Shown piece after piece: positions 47,418 to 55,434 of a stretch of 64,000 bases of DNA. Both the position numbers and the translations under genes were made by a program. The stretch comes from Thermoplasmata archaeon (GTDB lineage Archaea; Thermoplasmatota; Thermoplasmata; Lutacidiplasmatales; UBA184). The stretch is taken from contig DASPQG010000078.1 of assembly GCA_035625085.1 (NCBI GenBank), positions 2,151 to 66,150 of the forward strand, read 5' to 3'. Positions within the stretch are counted from its first letter, which is position 1, and every line of letters begins with the position of its first letter. The notes under the pieces are model-generated. The model was not told the DNA's origin. It ran no database searches and worked only from the letters and a program-made list of their open reading frames with translations.

Positions 47418-48995
47418 CTACGTCGCGGAGTACGTGGTGGTGTCGTAGATCCAGCCCACGATCGTGACGCCGTTATAGACGGTGAGCGTCAGGAAGAACT
47501 CGAGCGTCCCGAGGCTCGAAGGCTTCCAGCGCCCCCCGGACGGGTTGATGGTGATCGACGAGCCCTGGTTAACGGACGTGGTGCCGATCGTCCAGTGAGC
47601 CGTGCCGTTCCCCGTGTTGGAGACCCAGACCGTCCCGGAGAACGAAAGCGACGCGGGTCCGCCGAGTGCCGTGGTCCAGTTGTCCCATACCGTCACGTTG
47701 CCGTAGCCGCACGTGGGGGGTGAGCCGGTGGTGGTGCAGGTGTGCGAGGGGGGTACCTTCGTGTAGAACACGGCTCCTTGGACGTAAAGTGGAGTGGCAA
47801 TGGTAAGCGACCCGCTCGCCGAACCCACTCCGGTGATCGTGGCCGAGACGTTCACCCAGACCGACGAGTTCAGGAGCCACGAGGAGAACGACCCACCGCC
47901 CGGCCAGATCGCGTAGACCGTCATGGTCGACGGCCCCGAGATTTTGAGGGGTTGCGCCGGCCCGGTGAGCGGGGTCGAGGTCTTGGAGTGCGCCGTGAAC
48001 GGGGCGTGAGGAGTTTGGTTCACCCAGAAGGAGACGTTGAGGGCGGCGTTGGTCAAGGTGCCGGTATACGTAATCACCGCCGCGAAGTAGTCCGCCCCGA
48101 TGAAATTCGTCGGCGGTTGCGGTACCGCCACCACCTCGACCGTGATGGGGATCCCGCCCGGATTGCTGATGATCGTGATGACGACCGTTCCGATCGCCGT
48201 CTGCCCGGTGCCATTCAGGCCCGAGGCATTGACGAATCCATAGAACGTCCCGTTCAACTTGGTCACGCCGGTGCTGACGTTGTAAATCCACTGCCCTAGA
48301 CCATTCAACGTCATCCGCTGGGGAGTGGCCGGGGCTCCCGGGACGGAACCCAGGTTGACGTACACCGAGTTCATCTTGTAGGAGCCCGTCAGCGCCGCGT
48401 AGACGACGAACGGCTGCCCGATAATCGGGGTGGATGGGACGGTGTAGGTCGACACGACCGTCGGCGGCGTGTGGAACGTCGTGCCGGGGAGAATCACGCT
48501 GAACAGCAGCTGCGATTGGGAGACAATGTAGATCGTGATGTTGCTGGCGGCCTGCGGCATCTGCGTGATGGGGAACGTCAAGGTCCAGATCTGCCCAAGG
48601 TTCCAGATCGTGGAACCGCCGGGGAGCCCGGAGGCCACCGTGTACGGGCTCTGGAACTCAGGAGCCGTCGGCTGGTTCGCGGACTTGAGGTAGATGAGCC
48701 CGCTCCCGGGAACCTGCGGTCCGGCGAGATGGACGATGCGGATCCCGGCGACCCACTTGAGCGTCCCATTCGACGGATAGAACAGCGAGGCCTGGAACTG
48801 GTTATTGTTCTGGGCCGGAGGGGAAGGGAACGTCGTGACGAACGCGAAGATCGCCGCGAAGAGGGTAACGGTCAGCGCCAGAAGAAGAATCGTCGCAATG
48901 ACGTCCGAAATCCCCCGCCCGCGTCGCTGGATTCCCCGCCGGTGGGACGAACTTGCGCGCCACCGGCTCCGCATGCCTGCCATGGATCGAATCAC
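47418..48995 (-). CDS. large secreted protein with an archaeal type IV pilin-like (class III) signal peptide (Pilin_N/DUF1628-like)
   Basis: 525-aa ORF (GTG 48995; alternative ATGs at 48983 and 48974). It has RRGRG-ISDVIATILLLALTVTLFAAIFAFV near the N-terminus. About 13 N-X-S/T sequons by eye, and Thr/Gly/Val-rich beta-type sequence. Confidence 0.8.
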   Translation of the reverse strand: MIRSMAGMRSRWRASSSHRRGIQRRGRGISDVIATILLLALTVTLFAAIFAFVTTFPSPPAQNNNQFQASLFYPSNGTLKWVAGIRIVHLAGPQVPGSGLIYLKSANQPTAPEFQSPYTVASGLPGGSTIWNLGQIWTLTFPITQMPQAASNITIYIVSQSQLLFSVILPGTTFHTPPTVVSTYTVPSTPIIGQPFVVYAALTGSYKMNSVYVNLGSVPGAPATPQRMTLNGLGQWIYNVSTGVTKLNGTFYGFVNASGLNGTGQTAIGTVVITIISNPGGIPITVEVVAVPQPPTNFIGADYFAAVITYTGTLTNAALNVSFWVNQTPHAPFTAHSKTSTPLTGPAQPLKISGPSTMTVYAIWPGGGSFSSWLLNSSVWVNVSATITGVGSASGSLTIATPLYVQGAVFYTKVPPSHTCTTTGSPPTCGYGNVTVWDNWTTALGGPASLSFSGTVWVSNTGNGTAHWTIGTTSVNQGSSITINPSGGRWKPSSLGTLEFFLTLTVYNGVTIVGWIYDTTTYSAT

Positions 48996-49247: not shown

Positions 49248-49832
49248 TTACTGGAAGCTGTTCGACGGCACCGTGCCGCTGTAGCCGTTCACGCCGATCG
49301 CGACGAGCTGGAAGCCGAACAGACCGGAAGCGTGCGTTGGCGCGACCTGAATGACGATGGTGAACCCACCGCCGATCGTTCCCGCAAACGTTCCCAAGTT
49401 CGTCCACGCCGAAGTGTTCGTGTTGTACGACGCGACGGGTCCGGTTCCCACGGACGGGCTGATCAGCTTCACGGCGTCGGACGCTGTCACCCAGGGAATC
49501 GTCGCCCCGAGCGTGTTCCGCAGCGCCAGCTGGAAGTTCGACGTGCCGACACCGCCACCGGCTCCCGCGATCTCAATGCTGTAGCAGTACGAGGCGGTCG
49601 CCGACGTGCATCCCGTGGTCGTCGACCCCGTGATGTTGAACGGCGTTCCCCACGAGAAGTTCGTTCCCAGGGGCGCCGATCCCGTACCGTGCGTCAGCCC
49701 CGAGATCAGCACATAGAGCACGGCGGCCAGCACGACCGTAATCGCCACGAGCAAGATCGTAGCGATGATCGGCGACACTCCGCGCTTCCGCGCCTTTCTC
49801 CAGCTTCGTTCGTTCTTTCCGAAGACGTTCAT
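49248..49832 (-). CDS. archaeal type IV pilin-like protein (Pilin_N/DUF1628-like)
   Basis: Track ORF 49248..50105 trimmed to ATG 49832, with GGAGG 8 nt upstream. Sequence starts MNVFGKNERSWRKARKRG-VSPIIATILLVAITVVLAAVLYVLISG. The mature part of about 170 aa has sequons. Confidence 0.85.
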   Translation of the reverse strand: MNVFGKNERSWRKARKRGVSPIIATILLVAITVVLAAVLYVLISGLTHGTGSAPLGTNFSWGTPFNITGSTTTGCTSATASYCYSIEIAGAGGGVGTSNFQLALRNTLGATIPWVTASDAVKLISPSVGTGPVASYNTNTSAWTNLGTFAGTIGGGFTIVIQVAPTHASGLFGFQLVAIGVNGYSGTVPSNSFQ

Positions 49833-49965
49833 CCGCGTTCGTTCCTCCGTTTCGTGGGCCCTTCGACCCGCGGGTGAGGGTATGGCCGATATCAGGTATT
49901 TGAAACTACGGGGCAGTGGAAACGGCGCAAAACGAAGCTCACATCGTTCATTGACGTAATACGCA

Positions 49966-49981
49966 TCAATGCGCATATTGA
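49966..49981. promoter_or_regulatory. inverted repeat TCAAT-N6-ATTGA containing the perfect palindrome ATGCGCAT (49969..49976)
   Basis: Read directly in the AT-richer pilin/RHH intergenic region. Confidence 0.35.
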
Positions 49982-49987
49982 CACACC

Positions 49988-50008
49988 TTCGCACGTCAGA
50001 GAACGCAC
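49988..50008 (+). repeat. direct repeat copy 1 (TTCG-CACGTCAGAGAACGCAC)
   Basis: The 12-nt core CACGTCAGAGAA at 49992..50003 is identical to 50188..50199. Confidence 0.6.
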
Positions 50009-50030
50009 GGTGGGGCTTCACCCGGAAGCG

Positions 50031-50294
50031 GTCGAACCGCTCGTGCGACCGATGGATCTCACGGTTCGGGAGCATGCGGAAGTGCGCCGGACAATGACCT
50101 CTCACGTCCGCACGTGCGCGTTACGGGGGTTATACTGAATCGATCGGCTCTGCAGGTGGTGTTCGACCACTACAAATCGATGTTCGACACGTCAGAGAAT
50201 GCGCTTATTGCGGCCAGGCCCTCGCTCTTATCGGTCGAGTGTGGCTGTGTTTAAGTAGATGGACTTTCCATCCCTCTGCTCGACTGTGTTCGAC
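50031..50294. promoter_or_regulatory. cluster of four GTTCGAC / GTCGAAC heptamers (candidate operator sites)
   Basis: GTCGAAC lies at 50031..50037 in inverted orientation. GTTCGAC lies at 50161..50167, 50182..50188 and 50288..50294; each of these three is preceded by T, giving TGTTCGAC. A 6/7 copy, CTTCGAC, lies at 49861..49867. Confidence 0.45.
50183..50204 (+). repeat. direct repeat copy 2 (TTCGACACGTCAGAGAATGCGC)
   Basis: Same 12-nt core as copy 1, 196 bp downstream, fused to one of the TGTTCGAC motifs. Confidence 0.6.
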
Positions 50295-50786
50295 AACGCT
50301 TCCCGACGAGCCAAAGGGGCATCCGAAGAGCCACCGGCCCGTGGGGAAGAGCCCGAGGACGCGCGCATCGCCCTACGGTGCAACCGCAAGGAGCTCCAGT
50401 TGGTCGACTCGTTCGTGGCAAACGGCGAGTTCCCGACCCGCTCGGAGCTCATGCGGGCGGCGCTGCACGCGTTCCTCCGGGCCCGCGCGATGTCGACCGC
50501 GCCAACGCCCGCCGTGGACGCCGAGGGCTTCATCGAGGTCCCCGTGCGCCTGCGGCCCGAGGAGTACGCCCGCCTCGAGACCTACGCCCACCACGTCGCC
50601 AACCGCGGCTCGGTGAAGGACATCCTCGCCGAGATCGTGCGTCGCGGCGAGTTGGAGATGAAGGTCCACGAGCTCGTTCAACGGGCCCGCGAAACGGTGC
50701 GCGAGGCGGTGGAAACCCGGACTCAGGTCGGAGCGCTCGGAGAGAGCGCGAAGGACCTCGAACGCAAGGGGGTCGTGGGCCGGTAG
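50259..50786 (+). CDS. ribbon-helix-helix (CopG-family) DNA-binding protein with a C-terminal helical extension
   Basis: 175-aa ORF. The RHH core is RIALRCNRKELQLVDSFVANGEFPTRSELMRAALHAFL. A second beta-strand-like stretch (FIEVPVRLRPEEYARLETYA) and a charged helix follow. The start may be GTG 50286, about 35 nt after a TTTAAGTA box. Confidence 0.8.
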   Translation: MDFPSLCSTVFDNASRRAKGASEEPPARGEEPEDARIALRCNRKELQLVDSFVANGEFPTRSELMRAALHAFLRARAMSTAPTPAVDAEGFIEVPVRLRPEEYARLETYAHHVANRGSVKDILAEIVRRGELEMKVHELVQRARETVREAVETRTQVGALGESAKDLERKGVVGR

Positions 50787-50805
50787 ATGCGCGCGAGCGG
50801 TTGGA

Positions 50806-51747
50806 GTGCTCCGTCAAGGGGGGGTTGTGGAGACCTACGAGGCCGGGCAATCGAGTGACGACCAAACGGGAGCGGGCGGGAGCGGGGAACCGAGCGGGGC
50901 CAGTTGGGAGAATCCGCTTCGGCTCGGACATGACGTCCGTTTCGTACTAGCCGCCGTCGGCGGCGGGGCGATTCGGGTCGCCCGCGAGGTCGCGCGCCAC
51001 CATCTCCGGCACCTGGAGACCGTCGCCATCAACTGCGACCCCAAGGTCCAGGGATTCGATGAGTTCGACCGCCGCGTCTACCTCGGCCCGGACTCTGGGG
51101 CCGATACCGACACGGGAGGCTCCCCATTTGTCGGCGGCGTGCTCGCGCGGGCCGCGGAGCCCGCGCTGCAGCGGATCTTCCATGGCGTCACGTTCGTCAT
51201 CGTTGTCGGCAGCCTCGGAGGAGGGGCCGGGAGCGGGGCGTTCCCGTACGTCCTCGAGGTCGCCTCCCGGAACGCCGAGGTCGTGAGCGCGTTCGTGATC
51301 AAGCCGTTCCGGTGCGAGGGCGAACGCCGGGCGCTCGCCGACCGTGCCATCGGCCGCCTTCACTTCGTGGAGTCGTTCACCGAGAAGCGGGAGCGGGGCG
51401 TCGCGACCCTCCAGACCCTCGACAACGAGAGCCTCGTCGCCACCTGTGGCTCGCTCGCTTTCTGCCGAATCGCCGACCACTGGGCGTCGGTGATCGAGGA
51501 ACACATCGAACGGTCATTCCTGGCCCCGACCGAGGCGATCCTCGCGGCGGCCGAGCTCGCCCCGGGCGCCGTCGCGCCCTCCATGGCCCCCGACGCGGTT
51601 GGCGGCACGGAGCTCGGAGTAGTTCCGCCACCCCCGGCTCCCGAGCCTCAGCTCCCGGTCCCGGTGCCCGCTCTTCGGGCAGCCGCGGCCGAGGTTGAGC
51701 TCACCTTCGAGGTCGACGCCAAGGCGAACCCTCCTTCCGCACAGTAA
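50806..51747 (+). CDS. FtsZ/tubulin-superfamily GTPase-domain-only protein (no FtsZ C-terminal domain) with an Ala/Pro-rich tail
   Basis: 313-aa ORF (GTG 50806; alternative GTG 50827). FtsZ motifs occur in order: AVGGGAIRVA, AINCD, TGGSPFVGGVLA, VGSLGGGAGSGAFP (51217..51237), IKPFRCEGERR, LDNESL and FCRIADHW. From about aa 236 the sequence is low complexity only. Confidence 0.75.
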   Translation: MLRQGGVVETYEAGQSSDDQTGAGGSGEPSGASWENPLRLGHDVRFVLAAVGGGAIRVAREVARHHLRHLETVAINCDPKVQGFDEFDRRVYLGPDSGADTDTGGSPFVGGVLARAAEPALQRIFHGVTFVIVVGSLGGGAGSGAFPYVLEVASRNAEVVSAFVIKPFRCEGERRALADRAIGRLHFVESFTEKRERGVATLQTLDNESLVATCGSLAFCRIADHWASVIEEHIERSFLAPTEAILAAAELAPGAVAPSMAPDAVGGTELGVVPPPPAPEPQLPVPVPALRAAAAEVELTFEVDAKANPPSAQ

Positions 51748-51759
51748 TCCGATCGGGGC

Positions 51760-51776
51760 GGGGGACCGAATCCCCC
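51760..51776 (+). terminator. GC hairpin (GGGGGA-CCGAA-TCCCCC) 13 nt after the FtsZ-like stop
   Basis: 6-bp stem, 5-nt loop. Flanking GGGGCGG (51755..51761) and CCGCCCC (51785..51791) could form an alternative outer helix. The downstream T-content is weak (CTTCTCC...ACTTTAT). Confidence 0.3.
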
Positions 51777-51828
51777 CGGCTTCTCCGCCCCGCGTAACTT
51801 TATGAGAGGTTCCGTCTCGGGGACGGCG

Positions 51829-51996
51829 ATGGACGGTCGGCTCATCACGGTCCTCGGGCTTCTCCTCCTCCCGGCTGCCCTCATCGGGGTGACGGTCGAG
51901 GAGTTCCACTCGAACCCCGTCGCGATCCTGGGTCTGCTCGCCGTGATGATCTTCGGCGCGTTCTACCTCGTCTCGTACACCGAGACGTTCGCGTGA
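51829..51996 (+). CDS. small two-TM membrane protein (55 aa; 64 aa if ATG 51802 is used)
   Basis: MDGRLITVLGLLLLPAALIGVTVEEFHSNPVAILGLLAVMIFGAFYLVSYTETFA, with high GC3. ATG 51829 lies 30 nt after a CTTTAT box that overlaps the upstream ATG 51802. Confidence 0.55.
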   Translation: MDGRLITVLGLLLLPAALIGVTVEEFHSNPVAILGLLAVMIFGAFYLVSYTETFA

Positions 51997-52024: not shown

Positions 52025-52822
52025 TCACCCGTACATTCCCGGCGTGGGAGCCGGGGTTTCGACTTGCGGTACCGAAGCGGGGTGTGACTTCATGACGGCG
52101 CGGAGCGCCTTCTCGATCTGCTCCGCCTGGGCGCGCAGGGGCTTTGTGTCAATCTCCACCTCGGGGAGCACACGGTCGAGCGCCTCGATCAGTGCCGCCC
52201 CCGCCCGATGGTCGGGTAGACCCTCGGCGACCCGGGCGCTCACGAGCATCACGACGACCGGAATCGAGCGGCCCATCCCCTGGACGAGCAGCGCGCCCGA
52301 GACCCCCCCGATCACGCCGTCCTCGAGCAACCGCGCCTGCGCCGGCTCGAACGTCTTCACGATGGCCGCGTCTTTCCGCGAGTAGGCGACCCAAACCTGC
52401 TCGGGGGGTTGGTCCTCCGCGACCGCGCTCTCTTCGTCCGTCTCCTCGTCGCCCGGAGGGTGAGGAACGACCCCCTCGAACCCCACGATCATCCGAGCGT
52501 GGTGACGCTCGGCCGCGTCCAGGATCGTCCGGGCGATCGAGTTCGCCTGCGACGGGCTCGGCGGAAACTCCGAAAGGACCAGACCGAGGTCCTGTCGCCC
52601 GTAGACCCGGATCGTAGGGTGGACCTCCCCGCCTTGGACGACCGCGATCGGGGCGATCTCGGGGGACTCGAAGCGGCCGACGCGCGGCAGGTTCAGGGCC
52701 CGGATCATGTAATGGCCCGCGACCGTGGTCGCGAGGCCGGCGCTCGGGAACGCCGACACCAGGACCGAACCTTCGCCGAAACTCTTGCCCGGGGGCGCTT
52801 CCTCTCGCCACGTGAACTCCAT
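52025..52822 (-). CDS. PAC2-family proteasome assembly chaperone (PbaA/PbaB-like)
   Basis: 265-aa ORF with LVSAFPSAGLATTVAGHYMI, GVIGGVSGALL and LPDHRAGAALIEAL. The C-terminus is ...PGMYG (HbYX-like). Confidence 0.8.
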   Translation of the reverse strand: MEFTWREEAPPGKSFGEGSVLVSAFPSAGLATTVAGHYMIRALNLPRVGRFESPEIAPIAVVQGGEVHPTIRVYGRQDLGLVLSEFPPSPSQANSIARTILDAAERHHARMIVGFEGVVPHPPGDEETDEESAVAEDQPPEQVWVAYSRKDAAIVKTFEPAQARLLEDGVIGGVSGALLVQGMGRSIPVVVMLVSARVAEGLPDHRAGAALIEALDRVLPEVEIDTKPLRAQAEQIEKALRAVMKSHPASVPQVETPAPTPGMYG

Positions 52823-52921
52823 GGGCGGACCTTCCGGAGAGCGGAAACGCCGGTCCCTATAGAGTCTGGCGGGAGAAACGCCGCGCTAATCCCAAGTACT
52901 CGGCCCCCCTCGGAACGCCCC

Positions 52922-53962
52922 GTGGGGCTTCCCCTCCGGGACCTGGTCGTCGCGCAGGAGCTTCCGTGGGACGCGCTCGCCGGTCGGATGCTGGCAGTGG
53001 ACGGCTACAACGCCGTCTACCAGTTCCTCGCGACCCTTCGCCAGCGCGACGGTCAGCTGTTCTGCGACGCCGAGGGGAGGGTGACCAGTCACCTGATGGG
53101 GGTCTTCTACCGGACGACGTCGCTTCTCCGCGAAGGCGTGCTGCCGGTCTGGGTGTTTGACGGGAAGCCGCCCGAGCGCAAGACCGGAACGATCCGTCAG
53201 CGGATCGAGGCGAAGGAGAAGGCGGAAGGAGAGTGGCAGCAGGCGCTCGCCGCGGGGGACCTCGAGACCGCCCGGAAGAAGGCGGCCCAGACGTCCCGCC
53301 TGACACGGCCGATGGTCGAGGAACTCCGAGAGCTCCTGCGCGCCCTCGGCGTCCCTTCGGTCCAAGCTCCGAGCGAGGGGGAGGCACAGGCGGCGGTGAT
53401 GGCCGCGCGCGGGACCGTTTGGGCGACCGCGTCCGAGGATTACGACTCGCTTCTGTTCGGCTCGCCCAAGCTCGTCCGGGGTTTGGCAGCGCGGGCTCGG
53501 GGCGGGGCCACCCCGGGGGCCCAGCTGATCGACCGGTCGGAGGTGCTCTCTTCTCTCGGAATCAGCGAGGAGGAGCTGATCCTGCTCGGGATCATCATCG
53601 GGACCGACTTCAATGACGGGGTCCGGGGGTACGGTCCGAAGAAGGCGCTCAAACTAGTCCAGGAGCACCTTGGATTCCGGCCGACGCTCGCGAAGGTAGG
53701 GATCGAACCGGCGGAGGCCGACGAGGTGGCGGAGATCTTCCGCCACCCGTTGTCGGTCGAGGTAACTCCCCCCGCGTTCGGGCCGGTCGACGAGGCCGCT
53801 GTCCGGACGCTCTTGATCGACCAGCACGGCTTCTCCGAGGAACGCGTGCGGGCGGCGATCGGTCGCGCCCGCCAGAGGCCGAGGACCAGCAGTTCCCCAC
53901 AAGAAGCGCGCGGGCATCAGACTCTTCTTGAGACGTTCGGTGGGTCGTCCGAACCTCCATGA
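52922..53962 (+). CDS. fen: flap endonuclease 1
   Basis: Track ORF 52409..53962 trimmed to GTG 52922. This gives (M)GLPLRDLVV...LAVDGYNAVYQFL, matching the conserved FEN1 N-terminus MG-x-L-x-(D/E)-L. It also has VWVFDGKPP, SEGEAQAA and GTDFN. Confidence 0.92.
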   Translation: MGLPLRDLVVAQELPWDALAGRMLAVDGYNAVYQFLATLRQRDGQLFCDAEGRVTSHLMGVFYRTTSLLREGVLPVWVFDGKPPERKTGTIRQRIEAKEKAEGEWQQALAAGDLETARKKAAQTSRLTRPMVEELRELLRALGVPSVQAPSEGEAQAAVMAARGTVWATASEDYDSLLFGSPKLVRGLAARARGGATPGAQLIDRSEVLSSLGISEEELILLGIIIGTDFNDGVRGYGPKKALKLVQEHLGFRPTLAKVGIEPAEADEVAEIFRHPLSVEVTPPAFGPVDEAAVRTLLIDQHGFSEERVRAAIGRARQRPRTSSSPQEARGHQTLLETFGGSSEPP

Positions 53963-55434
53963 CGCTGTTCGAGTGCGTGCCGAACTTCTCCGAGGGAAAG
54001 GACCCGGATCGGATCGAGCGGATCGTAGCCCCGGCGCGCCAGGTTCCCGGAGTGACGGTGCTCGATGTCGAGCGGAACGCGGACCACAACCGCTGCGTCA
54101 TCAGCCTGGTCGGCGAGGGGGACGCGCTGCTCGATGCGGTGTTCCGGATGATGCAGGTCGCGACCGAGCTCATCGACCTCAACGCCCAACGGGGTGAGCA
54201 CCCCCGAATGGGCGCCACCGACGTCGTGCCGTTCGTCCCGATCGGGAGTTCGACCATGGCCGACGCGATCCGCCTCGCGGAGCGGCTCGGCGCCCGGGTG
54301 GCGAAGGAGCTCGGAATCCCGGTCTACCTCTACGCCGCGGCAGCGAAACGACCCGAGCGGGCCGATCTCGCCAAGGTGCGGGAGGGGCAGTTCGAGGGGC
54401 TACGCGAGGTGATCGCGACCGACCCCACCCGCGCGCCGGATTTCGGCGAGCCGAAGCTGCACCCAACGGCCGGCGCCGTCGCGATCGGAGCGCGTCCCGT
54501 GCTGATCGCCTACAACGCCTACCTCACGACCCCCGACGTGGCGATCGCGAAGAAGATCGCGAAGGCAGTCCGCGCTCGCGACGGTGGTCTCCCGGAGGTC
54601 AAGGCGCTCGGGTTCGAGATCCGCGAACGCAATCGGGCTCAAGTGTCGATGAACCTCACCGACTACCATGTCACGCCGGTCCACCGCGCCCTCGAAGCGG
54701 TCCGTCGGGAGGCCCAGCGGTTCGGCGTGTCGGTGGAGGAGTCGGAGATCGTCGGCCTCGTGCCGGAGGACGCGCTGTTCGATGCCGCCGAGTACTATCT
54801 TCAGCTCCATTCGTTCGACCGCGCGGCGGTGCTCGAACGGAAGGTCCGGGCCGCCGAGAGCAGTGGTCCGGGCCACGAGTCGATCGCGTCGTTCGCCGCG
54901 CGCCTCGCGGCTCGAACGCCGACTCCGGGCGGCGGGAGTGCCGCGGGCGTGGTCGCGGCGCTCGCCGCCGCCCTGGGTGAGATGGTGCTCGCCTACTCGA
55001 TCGATCCGGCCAAGCCCGACGCCGATCTGGTGGCGGTCCAGCGGATGCTGACCGAGGGACGGCACCGATTCCTCGAGCTCGCGGACGAGGATGCCCGTTC
55101 GTACGACGCGGTCCGCTCTTCGAAGAAAGCGCGTAAGGAGCACCCCAACGATCCGGCCGCCCAGGAAGGGTACCTCCGGGCGGTTCGGGGCGCCGCCGAG
55201 GTCCCCCTCGAGACCGCACGGCGTTCGGTCGACCTCGCGCACCGGTTCGACAGCGTTCGGGCCCGGACGCGGGCCGCCCTTTCGAGCGATCTCGTCACTT
55301 CGCTCGCCCTTTTCCGGGCGGCCGCGGAGGGGGCCCTTGCCAACGTCGCGATTAACCTCGAGGACCTGAAGGCCGCCGGGCAATCGATCGACGACCTCGA
55401 AAGCGAGGTCGCGCGGCTTCGCGCGGCCGGGTGA
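53959..55434 (+). CDS. glutamate formimidoyltransferase fused to formimidoyltetrahydrofolate cyclodeaminase (FTCD-like)
   Basis: 491-aa ORF with N-terminus MTLFECVPNFSEGKD and GATDVVPF. The C-terminal about 190 aa is helical cyclodeaminase-like (TPGGGSAAGVVAAL). ATGA overlap with the fen stop. Confidence 0.85.
   Translation: MTLFECVPNFSEGKDPDRIERIVAPARQVPGVTVLDVERNADHNRCVISLVGEGDALLDAVFRMMQVATELIDLNAQRGEHPRMGATDVVPFVPIGSSTMADAIRLAERLGARVAKELGIPVYLYAAAAKRPERADLAKVREGQFEGLREVIATDPTRAPDFGEPKLHPTAGAVAIGARPVLIAYNAYLTTPDVAIAKKIAKAVRARDGGLPEVKALGFEIRERNRAQVSMNLTDYHVTPVHRALEAVRREAQRFGVSVEESEIVGLVPEDALFDAAEYYLQLHSFDRAAVLERKVRAAESSGPGHESIASFAARLAARTPTPGGGSAAGVVAALAAALGEMVLAYSIDPAKPDADLVAVQRMLTEGRHRFLELADEDARSYDAVRSSKKARKEHPNDPAAQEGYLRAVRGAAEVPLETARRSVDLAHRFDSVRARTRAALSSDLVTSLALFRAAAEGALANVAINLEDLKAAGQSIDDLESEVARLRAAG

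Follow-up and report, generated by a model that had tools for sequence, protein, structure and literature searches.

GTP hydrolysis by FtsZ and tubulin requires that one subunit supply its T7 loop to complete the nucleotide pocket of the next. FtsZ monomers add via their GTP-bound top face onto the bottom end of the filament, where T7 is exposed. In archaea, the synteny and regulation of the cdrS-ftsZ2 gene pair have been published, and the ribbon-helix-helix (RHH) protein CdrS controls division in model archaea (PMC7439475). Unusual members of the FtsZ family have been described as well. Agrobacterium FtsZ1 and FtsZ3 are shortened paralogues that are conserved in Hyphomicrobiales and have been proposed to have a tuning and not a driving role in division, and overexpression of FtsZ1 stops division (bioRxiv 10.1101/2025.09.29.679267). 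FtsZl1 is composed of about 1000 residues with a coiled coil and an α-helical C-terminal domain, and is encoded in vWA, GTPase and OmpA neighbourhoods; its T6–H7 region and FtsZ C-terminal domain are not recognisable (PMC2875224). FtsZl2 contains a 300-residue α/β C-terminal region (PMC2875224). The sequence-only reading of the locus described here had invoked GTPase-only FtsZ-like families already predicted by others. The published families do not match that description, being either long and multidomain or equipped with the 300-residue C-terminal region (PMC2875224).

The locus lies in a 64,000-nucleotide stretch of a Thermoplasmata contig from a soil archaeon (DASPQG010000078.1), hereafter the window. 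Among the Thermoplasmata are the Lutacidiplasmatales, which are abundant in soil, and the methanogens of the order Methanomassiliicoccales, which live in the gut; we know of no genetic model for division in these archaea.

The three-gene module and its conservation

Three open reading frames (ORFs) follow one another on the + strand at 50286–51996. They encode an RHH protein, a short FtsZ, designated half-FtsZ, and a small membrane protein with two transmembrane (TM) segments, designated TM55.

50286..50786, + strand: CdrS-like tandem RHH protein, 166 residues from a GTG start (profiles, homology, 82 of 84 loci)
50827..51747, + strand: half-FtsZ, 306 residues (Pfam, NCBIfam, homologue lengths, AF2, Foldseek, hhalign)
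51829..51996, + strand: TM55, two-TM membrane protein of 55 residues (83 of 84 loci, alignment, homologue at locus L086)

The RHH stop codon and the GTG start of half-FtsZ at 50827 are separated by 40 nt. In Thermoplasmata archaea, the three genes form a conserved module. The RHH gene is found in 82 and the TM55 gene in 83 of the 84 orthologous loci, and all three genes are present together in 82–83 of them. At L086, where half-FtsZ is only 37% identical and the GC content is 61%, the trio is kept while every other neighbour gene is different, and a TM55 homologue (E = 1.5e-6) adjoins the half-FtsZ gene. The linkage of half-FtsZ with the genes for an RHH and a mini membrane protein, proposed from the sequence of the window, thus holds in the gene-neighbourhood comparison even for a relative with otherwise different flanks. 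Truncated FtsZs that are more remote, from Methanomassiliicoccales and other lineages, also have an RHH gene upstream.

The neighbours of half-FtsZ comprise the RHH and two-TM genes, PAC2 and pilins. Type IV pilin genes lie upstream of the module in most loci. The module as a whole sits within conserved chromosomal synteny, with housekeeping genes around it. L086, L088 and L091 have lost the pilin synteny but not the RHH-ftsZ pair.

Half-FtsZ has 450 homologues, and the best 120 of the 450 are about 306 residues long. Within the Thermoplasmata (order UBA184/Lutacidiplasmatales), at least 80 GTDB species encode the same protein of about 306 residues, and its ORF recurs in hundreds of independent assemblies built from short or long reads. 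Because the homologues are 306 residues long, the start is placed at GTG 50827 and not at 50806; the 313-residue ORF proposed earlier is real but begins seven codons early. The dN/dS ratio rises from 0.044 in the domain to 0.12 in helix H7 and 0.46 in the linker, and is again low, at 0.088, in the peptide EVELTFEV.

One orthologue, L076, carries a frameshift. Such a lesion would be in keeping with an artefact or a decaying pseudogene, that is, a frameshifted or mis-assembled ftsZ, but the probability of this explanation is negligible. The same ORF is present across hundreds of independent assemblies, the domain and the terminal peptide evolve at a dN/dS of 0.04–0.09, and a remnant of FtsZ_C is found in no frame. 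These comparative data refute a pseudogene or artefact. The truncation is genuine and evolutionarily fixed. It is not an assembly error, as one ORF recurs in at least 80 species, and the earlier view that a single frameshift does not account for it is borne out by the lack of an FtsZ_C remnant in any frame.

Architecture of half-FtsZ

Half-FtsZ is sequentially composed of a disordered N-terminal segment (residues 1–29), a nucleotide-binding domain with an extended helix H7 (about 30–247), a Pro-rich linker (248–288), a peptide of sequence EVELTFEVD (289–297), and a short end.

51217..51237, + strand: T4 tubulin-signature loop GGGAGSG, canonically GGGTG[ST]G (sequence, alignments)
51568..51690, + strand: disordered Ala/Pro-rich linker, residues 248–288 (pLDDT, dN/dS, length kept)
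51691..51717, + strand: conserved C-terminal peptide EVELTFEVD (conservation in 114 sequences, dN/dS)

The Pfam Tubulin/FtsZ GTPase family PF00091 matches the ORF at 46.6 bits (cut-off 33), whereas FtsZ_C (PF12327) gives no Pfam match in the protein; both outcomes agree with the initial assignment. The NCBIfam model TIGR00065 (ftsZ) is matched with E = 9e-19 and 68 bits over model positions 24–160 of 353 only. Half-FtsZ thus falls below the equivalog cut-off for canonical FtsZ (295.2 bits). The AF2 model computed from 114 sequences is confident over residues of about 30–247 and disordered in the tail. In a Foldseek search with a model of the protein, the best 50 matches are all FtsZ (E about 1e-11), with alignments covering about 200 columns of targets of some 300 residues. 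The overlap with solved FtsZ structures is limited to the N-terminal nucleotide-binding domain and H7. Similarly, hhalign aligns half-FtsZ with canonical archaeal FtsZ at 99.2% probability, but residues 27–225 of the query correspond only to FtsZ residues 42–230. The N-terminal domain is strongly divergent from that of FtsZ, with 23–29% identity. Half-FtsZ is an FtsZ homologue that contains the nucleotide-binding domain and H7 only; the suggested structure prediction and fold search return the FtsZ fold for its N-terminal half alone.

The missing half is not encoded nearby. With four canonical C-terminal domains as tblastn queries, the best match in the window and the 84 orthologous loci has E = 0.15, in line with the prior claim that no other frame encodes FtsZ_C. 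FtsZ_C-like coding is found neither in the module nor within 5 kb at the 84 loci. The T7 synergy loop NxDFxD, which follows H7 in canonical FtsZ, is absent from half-FtsZ in the alignment. Neither AF2 model displays a folded domain beyond H7 or anything packing onto H7, and the terminal peptide is not confidently docked.

The loops T1–T6 are nearly invariant among the half-FtsZ orthologues. The T2 motif AINCD is present in 65 of 65 orthologues and the T4 motif GSLGGGAGSGA in 54 of 65, the latter with a T to A change relative to the canonical signature. KPFRCEG[ED]RR and LDNESL are each found in 56 of 65. The FtsZ motifs listed in the sequence-only reading are real and nearly invariant among these orthologues. 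In addition, a patch of L and F residues at the start of H7, which together with the loops constitutes the top polymer face of FtsZ, is kept. From its conserved loops, half-FtsZ is predicted to bind GTP. Some distant members of the family possess a degenerate T4 signature (GGEAGTE, GGETGSS, GGRSGTG, GGSSGTG), and GTP binding may for this reason be dispensable across the wider family.

The tail had been described as low complexity. A disordered linker followed by a selected terminal peptide is a better description, and this layout is also that of the C-terminal linker and peptide of FtsZ. The Pro-rich linker has a pLDDT mostly below about 55 in both AF2 models and changes in sequence among homologues while its length stays constant. 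The terminal peptide is under purifying selection as judged by dN/dS. Across 114 sequences, E291 and E295 never vary, and conservation reaches 90% or more at L292, T293 and F294. Homologues at 35–42% identity have similar C-terminal peptides (VELRFE, DVTFE, VECVIE, VEILLE, LELLLE, VELLFE).

A linker followed by a C-terminal peptide is a hallmark of membrane-tethered FtsZ filaments, and the extreme conservation of the domain resembles that of a core machine part. Half-FtsZ also follows a CdrS-like RHH gene, the slot held by full-length FtsZ in other Thermoplasmata. It could accordingly be imagined as a polymer that would replace FtsZ2 in these wall-less archaea, self-assembling via a non-canonical interface or complemented in trans by a separate protein with the missing bottom face or catalytic residues (split FtsZ), and a non-canonical filament mechanism has been raised for FtsZl1, which likewise lacks T7 and the C-terminal domain (PMC2875224). 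Such a polymer is improbable, given that the module and the 5 kb around it at 84 loci encode no FtsZ_C-like protein and that AF2 places nothing onto H7. Also against it, to our knowledge no member of the superfamily, be it FtsZ, tubulin, TubZ or CetZ, polymerises without its C-terminal domain.

The RHH protein, TM55 and flanking DNA elements

The RHH protein contains two repeats, the first starting with RIALRCNRKELQLVDSF and the second with IEVPVRLRPEEYARLETY, followed by a helical C-terminal tail. The ORF called mechanically from ATG 50259 encodes 175 residues. That ORF, used in the sequence-only reading, is real, but the start is most likely GTG 50286, since a TATA box occupies 50250–50257 and positions 50259–50285 are not conserved as coding sequence. 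Pfam RHH_1 matches the protein with E = 0.006, below the cut-off. The best NCBIfam match is CdrS (NF058555; E = 2e-6), although its 27.6 bits fail the equivalog cut-off of 100 and the likeness to CdrS is weak. The earlier label "CdrS/CdrL type" can be kept to this extent for CdrS and should be dropped for CdrL, as nothing resembling a CdrL protein (RHH plus double zinc ribbon) is present. The protein also matches the PHROG phage transcriptional-repressor family phrog_876 (E = 1.8e-5).

The homology of the RHH protein with those encoded ahead of other Thermoplasmata ftsZ genes, both short and canonical, spans its full length, and CdrS is always the best NCBIfam match of these proteins (up to 1.4e-15). 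Full-length Thermoplasmata FtsZ genes, carrying both PF00091 and PF12327, are preceded by homologous tandem RHH genes of 104–105 residues. As part of the explanation favoured below, and with the same tentative standing, the module would descend from an archaeal pair of RHH regulator and ftsZ, of which cdrS-ftsZ2 is the known example. A neighbour-joining (NJ) tree does not recover the half-FtsZ and canonical RHH-linked clades as sisters (1% bootstrap) and gives weak support (43%) to a single origin of all truncated forms.

50129..50135, + strand: GTTATAC box, some 130 nt ahead of the RHH ORF (same offset in 14 loci)
50160–50168 and 50181–50189, + strand: two direct TGTTCGAC(C/A) repeats, candidate RHH operator (repeat family D1)
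50250..50257, + strand: TATA box TTTAAGTA, putative promoter of the RHH/short-ftsZ unit (kept in all orthologous loci)
50287..50295, + strand: third repeat, TGTTCGACA, overlapping the probable GTG start and the expected transcription start
51754..51792, + strand: GC-rich hairpin between the half-FtsZ stop and the TM55 promoter (folding energy)
51797..51806, + strand: TATA-like box ACTTTATGAG of the TM55 gene (conserved in all loci)

The two direct repeats are spaced by 21 bp. Three of the eight TGTTCGAC copies in the window fall within 135 bp, where 2.5 copies are expected per 64 kb, and the copy at −76 is conserved at all loci examined. Canonical ftsZ loci contain related GTC[AG]GACA repeats downstream of their TATA box. 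The conserved repeats around the TATA box suggest that the RHH protein regulates its own gene, and the third copy, which overlaps the probable start codon, suggests autorepression. The GTTATAC box has a constant offset in 14 of 14 aligned orthologous loci, down to 48% protein identity, and could belong to a second or a divergent promoter.

The gene order, a DNA-binding adaptor with upstream repeats and then a tubulin-superfamily NTPase whose C-terminal tail is flexible, could also be that of a DNA-segregation cassette analogous to TubR-TubZ or ParR-ParM. Centromere-like repeats would then be bound by the RHH protein, and the tubulin-like protein would use its tail to move DNA; RHH adaptors are typical of ParR and ParG. 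This explanation is very unlikely. Pfam Tubulin_2 (TubZ-like, PF13809) reaches only 15.7 bits (cut-off 27), PHROG gives no match to the short FtsZ or the membrane protein, and none of the three genes matches defence systems. Moreover, the locus resides in conserved chromosomal synteny among housekeeping genes, the three or four short repeats flank a promoter like an operator and do not form an iteron array, and half-FtsZ is devoid of the polymerisation domain. The profile scores and the synteny likewise set half-FtsZ apart from the TubZ type.

TM55 follows the pattern MDGR–TM1–EF(H/S)SNP–TM2–FYLxSYxExF and has no match in family profile searches. A two-TM protein of 55–64 residues with its own TATA-like box had been proposed. 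The box is conserved and the protein is 55 residues from ATG 51829 in all orthologues; the upstream ATG at 51802 falls inside the box and is not the start. A TTAT/TTAA box precedes the ATG by about 25–33 nt in all loci, and this distance implies that the TM55 mRNA would be leaderless. The downstream GC hairpin noted earlier does fold (−28.5 kcal/mol, z = −2.3), and its GC-rich stem is recognisable in close relatives.

Proposed role and comparison with known systems

Half-FtsZ is most likely a regulator of division filaments and not one of their building blocks. The best explanation, to which we assign a probability of about 0.4, is that half-FtsZ is a GTP-binding, non-hydrolysing capper or modulator of FtsZ filaments under tandem-RHH control. 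By binding the TGTTCGAC repeats, which flank the promoter and overlap the start of its own gene, the RHH protein would set the level of the operon. With a complete nucleotide-binding domain and H7, half-FtsZ possesses the GTP pocket and the top polymer face; with the C-terminal domain and T7 loop missing, it has neither a bottom face nor the catalytic aspartates. It would bind GTP, yet neither hydrolyse it in a homopolymer nor extend a filament. A canonical FtsZ filament exposes T7 at its growing (bottom) end, and this loop would fit onto the top face of half-FtsZ. Half-FtsZ would therefore act as a sub-stoichiometric end-capper or as a modulator of the length or dynamics of the division ring. 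The conserved acidic peptide at its end would tether it to a partner, perhaps the adjacent membrane protein or an FtsZ membrane anchor, and TM55 would be expressed from its own promoter. The cytoplasmic parts of TM55 comprise only a few residues, making it a weak candidate for a docking site.

A related formulation is less probable and, in our view, doubtful. Here half-FtsZ would be a membrane-linked, GTP-loaded end-cap or single-turnover timer, or would replace FtsZ2 in its slot without canonical polymerisation, together with a CdrS-like autoregulator and a mini membrane protein. If true, this would represent the first natural split of the tubulin/FtsZ active-site halves between a filament former and a non-polymerising paralogue.

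Capping requires a canonical FtsZ in the same genome and would be impossible if it were absent. No match of WGS prefix and no shared flanking gene joins the two sets of loci, and the contigs of 1.5–2.3 Mb that carry half-FtsZ are not among the 240 best canonical FtsZ matches. The lack of a demonstrated co-occurrence would suit a stand-alone GTP-binding switch or adaptor that makes no contact with FtsZ filaments and acts as a monomer or dimer at the membrane with TM55 or the peptide partner. The tight and independent conservation of TM55 beside half-FtsZ, the strong divergence of the N-terminal domain (23–29% identity, 68 bits on TIGR00065), and the exposed face of the extended H7, which could be a new interaction surface, would be compatible with this role. 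Such a switch could control an envelope or membrane process, possibly tied to the type IV pilin genes upstream in most loci. However, the RHH-ftsZ pair outlasts the pilin synteny in L086, L088 and L091, the retained RHH protein is of the CdrS type that controls division in model archaea, and half-FtsZ retains the top-face loops together with the L and F residues where H7 begins. A stand-alone switch is thus rather unlikely.

Half-FtsZ is a natural pocket-side-only paralogue under strong purifying selection, with a proposed tether peptide of its own and a place in a conserved, putatively regulated module. The polarity of filaments and the dynamics of their ends could be probed with it directly. 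The module hints at a level of division control in Thermoplasmata that has not been studied, and would broaden the cdrS-ftsZ2 paradigm by a tandem-RHH regulator whose candidate operator is recognisable.

In cdrS-ftsZ2 of Halobacterium and Haloferax (PMC7439475, PMC8406309), a small RHH gene is located directly upstream on the same strand, as it is here. However, CdrS is a single RHH of about 60 residues (61 positions in NF058555), whereas the protein described here has 166 residues with tandem RHH repeats and a helical tail. The partner is a full-length FtsZ2 in the haloarchaea and an FtsZ without the C-terminal domain and T7 loop in this module, to which a 55-residue membrane-protein gene is added and in which CdrL is absent.

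Canonical FtsZ (TIGR00065) and half-FtsZ share the N-terminal fold, loops T1–T6 and H7, but half-FtsZ lacks the GTPase-activating domain and the T7 catalytic loop, and its T4 loop reads GGGAGSG. Both end in a disordered linker and a conserved terminal peptide, although EVELTFEV is unlike the "GID" motif of archaeal FtsZ and the "PAFLR" motif of bacterial FtsZ. CetZ is set apart by architecture, as its tubulin-like core has both domains and half-FtsZ contains the N-terminal one only.

Agrobacterium FtsZ1 and FtsZ3 keep the whole globular core (the first about 315 residues) and have lost most of the linker and the tail peptide. Half-FtsZ displays the opposite pattern, with half of the core lost and the linker and terminal peptide kept. 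FtsZl1 and FtsZl2 are divergent members of the FtsZ superfamily like half-FtsZ, but their similarity to FtsZ is much weaker. Half-FtsZ is not an FtsZl1, having 306 residues, no fold after H7, and RHH, two-TM, PAC2 and pilin genes as neighbours.

The proposed role would be analogous to that of MciZ, SulA, MipZ and engineered bottom-face FtsZ mutants, which block a filament end or sequester subunits (see PMC9897490). MciZ, SulA and MipZ are natural inhibitors with no relationship to FtsZ, and the mutants were made in the laboratory, whereas half-FtsZ would be a capper that is itself an evolutionarily fixed FtsZ paralogue.

Identity and predicted structure of the short FtsZ

The module consists of three forward-strand genes, all of which had been proposed in the sequence-only reading and are present in the window:

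50286–50786, +, CdrS-like tandem ribbon-helix-helix (RHH) protein
50827–51747, +, short FtsZ homolog of 306 residues (half-FtsZ)
51829–51996, +, 55-residue protein with two transmembrane segments (TM55)

The central frame had been started at 50806. Because its homologs are 306 residues long, its start is placed at the GTG at 50827 instead. The product does belong to the tubulin/FtsZ superfamily, matching PF00091 with 46.6 bits (cut-off 33). The NCBIfam FtsZ model, TIGR00065, is matched with an E-value of 9e-19, only over model positions 24–160 of 353 and with 68 bits, below the cut-off of 295. A family profile retrieves solved FtsZ structures (E = 1e-13), again over the N-terminal part only.

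Profile–profile comparison with hhalign aligns residues 27–225 with residues 42–230 of canonical archaeal FtsZ at 99.2% probability, and the alignment ends within helix H7. A multiple alignment shows that the T7 loop (NxDFxD) is missing along with everything downstream of it, and so is the surface that accepts the next subunit. The nucleotide pocket and its loops are kept, as is a patch of hydrophobic L/F residues where H7 begins. Since T7 and the FtsZ_C domain are missing and all matches are N-terminal, half-FtsZ is the nucleotide-binding half of FtsZ plus H7, without the GTPase-activating half.

Two AlphaFold2 models, built on 19 and 114 sequences, both contain a confident globular domain at residues ~30–247, closed by one long helix. 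The pLDDT of this domain is mostly 85–97 in the model with 114 sequences. The N-terminal ~29 residues have values below 50, and the C-terminal ~60 residues lie at ~35–55. The fold anticipated from the motifs is borne out by Foldseek, whose top 50 matches in the PDB are all FtsZ (E ~1e-11), with alignments of ~200 columns on targets of ~300 residues. MAFFT hinted that the terminal peptide is a relic of FtsZ strand S10, and this was rejected when hhalign gave no second match. The peptide does not fold back onto the domain in either model.

The missing half is not encoded nearby. As had been claimed for the other reading frames, tblastn searches across all frames of the window and 84 orthologous loci, with the C-terminal domains of four canonical FtsZs as queries, found nothing. 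No second FtsZ-like gene occurs in the window, and neither a second FtsZ copy nor a separate FtsZ_C gene lies near the locus in the window or the 84 loci.

Conservation of the gene and its neighborhood

Half-FtsZ has 450 relatives in the protein database. The best 120 of these, drawn from JGI, ENA, NCBI, and Logan assemblies, are almost all 304–311 residues long. A scan of one genome per species places the gene in at least 80 GTDB species, nearly all labelled Thermoplasmata, with one record named 'bacterium' and one Thermoplasmatota. Identity is 77% to UBA184 and 48% to Candidatus Lutacidiplasma silvani. UBA184 is the GTDB name for the order Lutacidiplasmatales, with a GC content of 65–71% (PMC9287336); the 68% GC of the window is consistent with this range.

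Over 123 pairs, the Nei–Gojobori dN/dS is lowest in the GTPase domain (0.044), followed by the nine-residue peptide EVELTFEVD (0.088) and H7 (0.12), and highest in the linker (0.46). Loops T1–T6 are almost invariant across orthologs. Judged by these constraints, the folded domain, variable spacer, and constrained end peptide follow the same plan as the linker and terminal peptide at the C-terminus of FtsZ. The recurrence of the same ~306-residue protein in many assemblies and at least 80 species, at low dN/dS, upholds the truncation as genuine, and an assembly artefact is given almost no weight. One ortholog (L076 5010–6059, MFD03399.bin.2.114) carries a frameshift near residue 195 and lies ~4 kb from the 55-residue gene, with pilin-like and other genes in between. 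It represents a true pseudogene accompanied by a rearrangement, or else a homopolymer error of long-read sequencing.

TM55 starts at the ATG at 51829, ~25–33 nt downstream of a conserved TATA-like box of its own. Its conserved features are an N-terminal MDGR, SNP in the loop, and a C-terminal FYLxSYxExF. It is assigned to no family, and its Pfam matches are all sub-threshold. A GC-rich hairpin (−28.5 kcal/mol, z = −2.3) lies between it and the short ftsZ.

The predicted linkage of the three genes holds in 82–83 of 84 loci, where an RHH homolog lies just upstream and a 55-residue two-transmembrane protein downstream. This count alone is weak evidence, because most of these genomes share a wider synteny of pilins, PAC2, FEN1, and formiminotransferase-cyclodeaminase (FTCD). 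Annotated features around the module are as follows:

1121–1195, −, tRNA gene (64.6 bits), the sole Rfam match in the window
47418–48995 and 49248–50105, −, two archaeal type IV pilin-like genes (Pilin_N; arch_flag_Nterm, E = 5e-14)
52025–52822, −, PAC2 proteasome-assembly chaperone (E = 1e-30), downstream of the module
52409–53962, +, FEN1/XPG nuclease (orthology with L001)
53959–55434, +, FTCD (orthology with L001)

The three downstream protein genes are all syntenically conserved. The pilin-like pair is syntenic in most Lutacidiplasmatales loci and not in distant relatives.

The decisive case for linkage is L086, which has 61% GC and encodes a relative of 37% identity; apart from the trio, all its neighbors differ. 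Its short FtsZ is accompanied by a 152-residue RHH homolog (E = 1e-15) and a 56-residue membrane-protein homolog (E = 1.5e-6). Remoter truncated FtsZs (21–24% identity, 240–300 residues, without FtsZ_C) occur in Methanomassiliicoccales and other lineages and are likewise preceded by an RHH gene. One of them, L091, adjoins a 66-residue two-transmembrane protein on the opposite strand. In L078 (5965–6513, −) and L083, which are Ca. Lutacidiplasma silvani-type genomes with a GGSSGTG T4 loop and a diverged T3 loop, a 182-residue opposite-strand frame separates the short ftsZ from the 55-residue gene.

In a rival reading, half-FtsZ would be a stand-alone GTP switch acting with the membrane protein. 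We regard the switch as rather unlikely.

The RHH protein and the upstream DNA elements

Each of the upstream proteins shows two RHH-like repeats in tandem, and all are mutually homologous (L091 against L093, 7e-14; L086 against the window, 1e-15). The suggestion of a CdrS/CdrL-type regulator stands in part. Haloarchaeal CdrS (NF058555) is the best NCBIfam match of every upstream RHH protein (1.4e-15 to 2e-3; 2e-6 for that of the window), but all of them score below the equivalog cut-off. A CdrL-like regulator is ruled out, as the protein has no zinc ribbon.

A tandem RHH gene of 104–105 codons also precedes full-length Thermoplasmata FtsZ genes, which carry both PF00091 and PF12327. Given these homologous neighbors, the RHH–ftsZ pair is ancestral in Thermoplasmata and a counterpart of the published cdrS–ftsZ2 arrangement (PMC7439475).

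Phylogenetic footprinting defines four conserved upstream elements:

50129–50135, GTTATAC box, ~130 nt upstream of the RHH frame, at an unchanged offset in each of 14 orthologous loci compared, with protein identities as low as 48%
50160 and 50181, TGTTCGAC repeats
50250–50257, TATA box TTTAAGTA, promoter role from conservation and position
50287, third repeat TGTTCGACA, overlapping the GTG codon

The GTTATAC box could be a second or divergent promoter. As 50259–50285 shows no conservation at the coding level, the GTG at 50286 is the probable start of the RHH protein, on a nearly leaderless mRNA. The TATA box was considered in the light of the general archaeal TATA-to-start spacing. The promoter and operator assignments are candidates based on conservation and position, and on the same basis the RHH protein may bind the repeats and regulate its own gene.

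Canonical FtsZ loci contain related GTC[AG]GACA repeats downstream of the TATA box. GTnnGACA repeats (GTCAGACA, GTCGGACA, GTATGACA) lie between the TATA box and the start codon in L099, L110, L119, L093, L086, and L088. Their presence at RHH–ftsZ loci of different Thermoplasmata orders suggests an operator type common to this RHH clade. At 49968–50046 and 50188–50210, the long pilin–RHH intergenic region also holds an inverted TTCGAC-type site, GCGGTCGAACCGC (50027–50046), and partial duplicates of CACGTCAGAGAA(T/C)GC and AATGCGC(A/T)TATTG. These may point to further regulator sites or to an ancient duplication.

A viral, plasmid, or defense origin was rejected. PADLOC gives no matches, and PHROG none to the short FtsZ or TM55; the sole PHROG match in the module is that of the RHH protein, with a family of phage transcriptional repressors. 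That the module is a DNA-segregation cassette is judged very improbable.

Proposed action and relation to known systems

An incoming FtsZ monomer uses its GTP-bound top face to bind the bottom end of the filament, where T7 is exposed and growth takes place (PMC8936486). Half-FtsZ is in effect a natural subunit with no bottom face. It would bind GTP, join the filament end, and halt growth; alternatively, it would sit at a hetero-interface with hydrolysis of one GTP. The tail peptide would tether it to a partner, and the RHH protein would set its dose. A GTP-bound end-stop or hetero-interface, peptide-tethered and RHH-dosed, is the most economical reading, with a probability of roughly 0.4. In some distant members the T4 loop is degenerate (GGEAGTE, GGETGSS, GGRSGTG, GGSSGTG), a warning that not every protein of the wider family need bind nucleotide.

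Canonical FtsZ was sought with the Thermoplasmata queries P0215 and P0434, by inspection of the loci of P0354, P0434, P0553, P0548, and P0523, and by a scan of JGI metagenome contigs. Soil Thermoplasmata of 63–65% GC have a highly conserved canonical RHH–ftsZ locus. In two such loci (L200 10313–11155, L201 8521–9363), a 280-residue double-zinc-ribbon protein (PF12773) lies ~5 kb downstream and is reminiscent of CdrL and CdpC, the zinc-ribbon division factors of haloarchaea. No same-genome link between half-FtsZ and canonical FtsZ emerged from a comparison of WGS prefixes and neighboring genes. No Mb-scale half-FtsZ contig is among the best 240 canonical matches listed, which is absence of evidence and not evidence of absence. 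The supplements of the Lutacidiplasmatales paper and the Thermoplasmatota survey make no mention of FtsZ. In a further reading, half-FtsZ would form a non-canonical or complemented polymer in place of FtsZ2. No superfamily member is known to polymerise without the C-terminal domain, and such a polymer is judged improbable, less so than a segregation cassette.

The origin of half-FtsZ is not settled by a distance-based neighbor-joining tree of 202 columns. Bootstrap support is 100% for the Lutacidiplasmatales-type clade and 88% for this clade with two remote truncated forms, only 43% for monophyly of all truncated forms, and 1% for their sister relation to the canonical RHH-linked clade. The M. 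jannaschii FtsZ1 sequence served only as a tip in this tree. The best non-family matches of the profile search are three metagenomic proteins of 731–840 residues (P0146, P0148, P0149), each a tandem fusion of two FtsZ units that are complete in both domains.

The module probably descends from cdrS–ftsZ2 and would work like it. Its RHH protein fails CdrS membership on score. Half-FtsZ itself falls outside FtsZ (C-terminal domain, T7 loop, and score) and outside FtsZ2. FtsZl1 membership is ruled out on architecture, and the architectures of FtsZl1 and FtsZl2 are unrelated to that of half-FtsZ. The truncated FtsZ paralogs of Hyphomicrobiales have lost the tail while retaining the complete core; half-FtsZ is their mirror image. 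Full-text literature searching found no description of the family, whose members are named 'hypothetical protein' or 'Tubulin/FtsZ family, GTPase domain' in databases. The fold and the gene-pair logic are already known. What is new is a half-core with a retained tether peptide, a tandem-RHH regulator, and a linked mini membrane protein.
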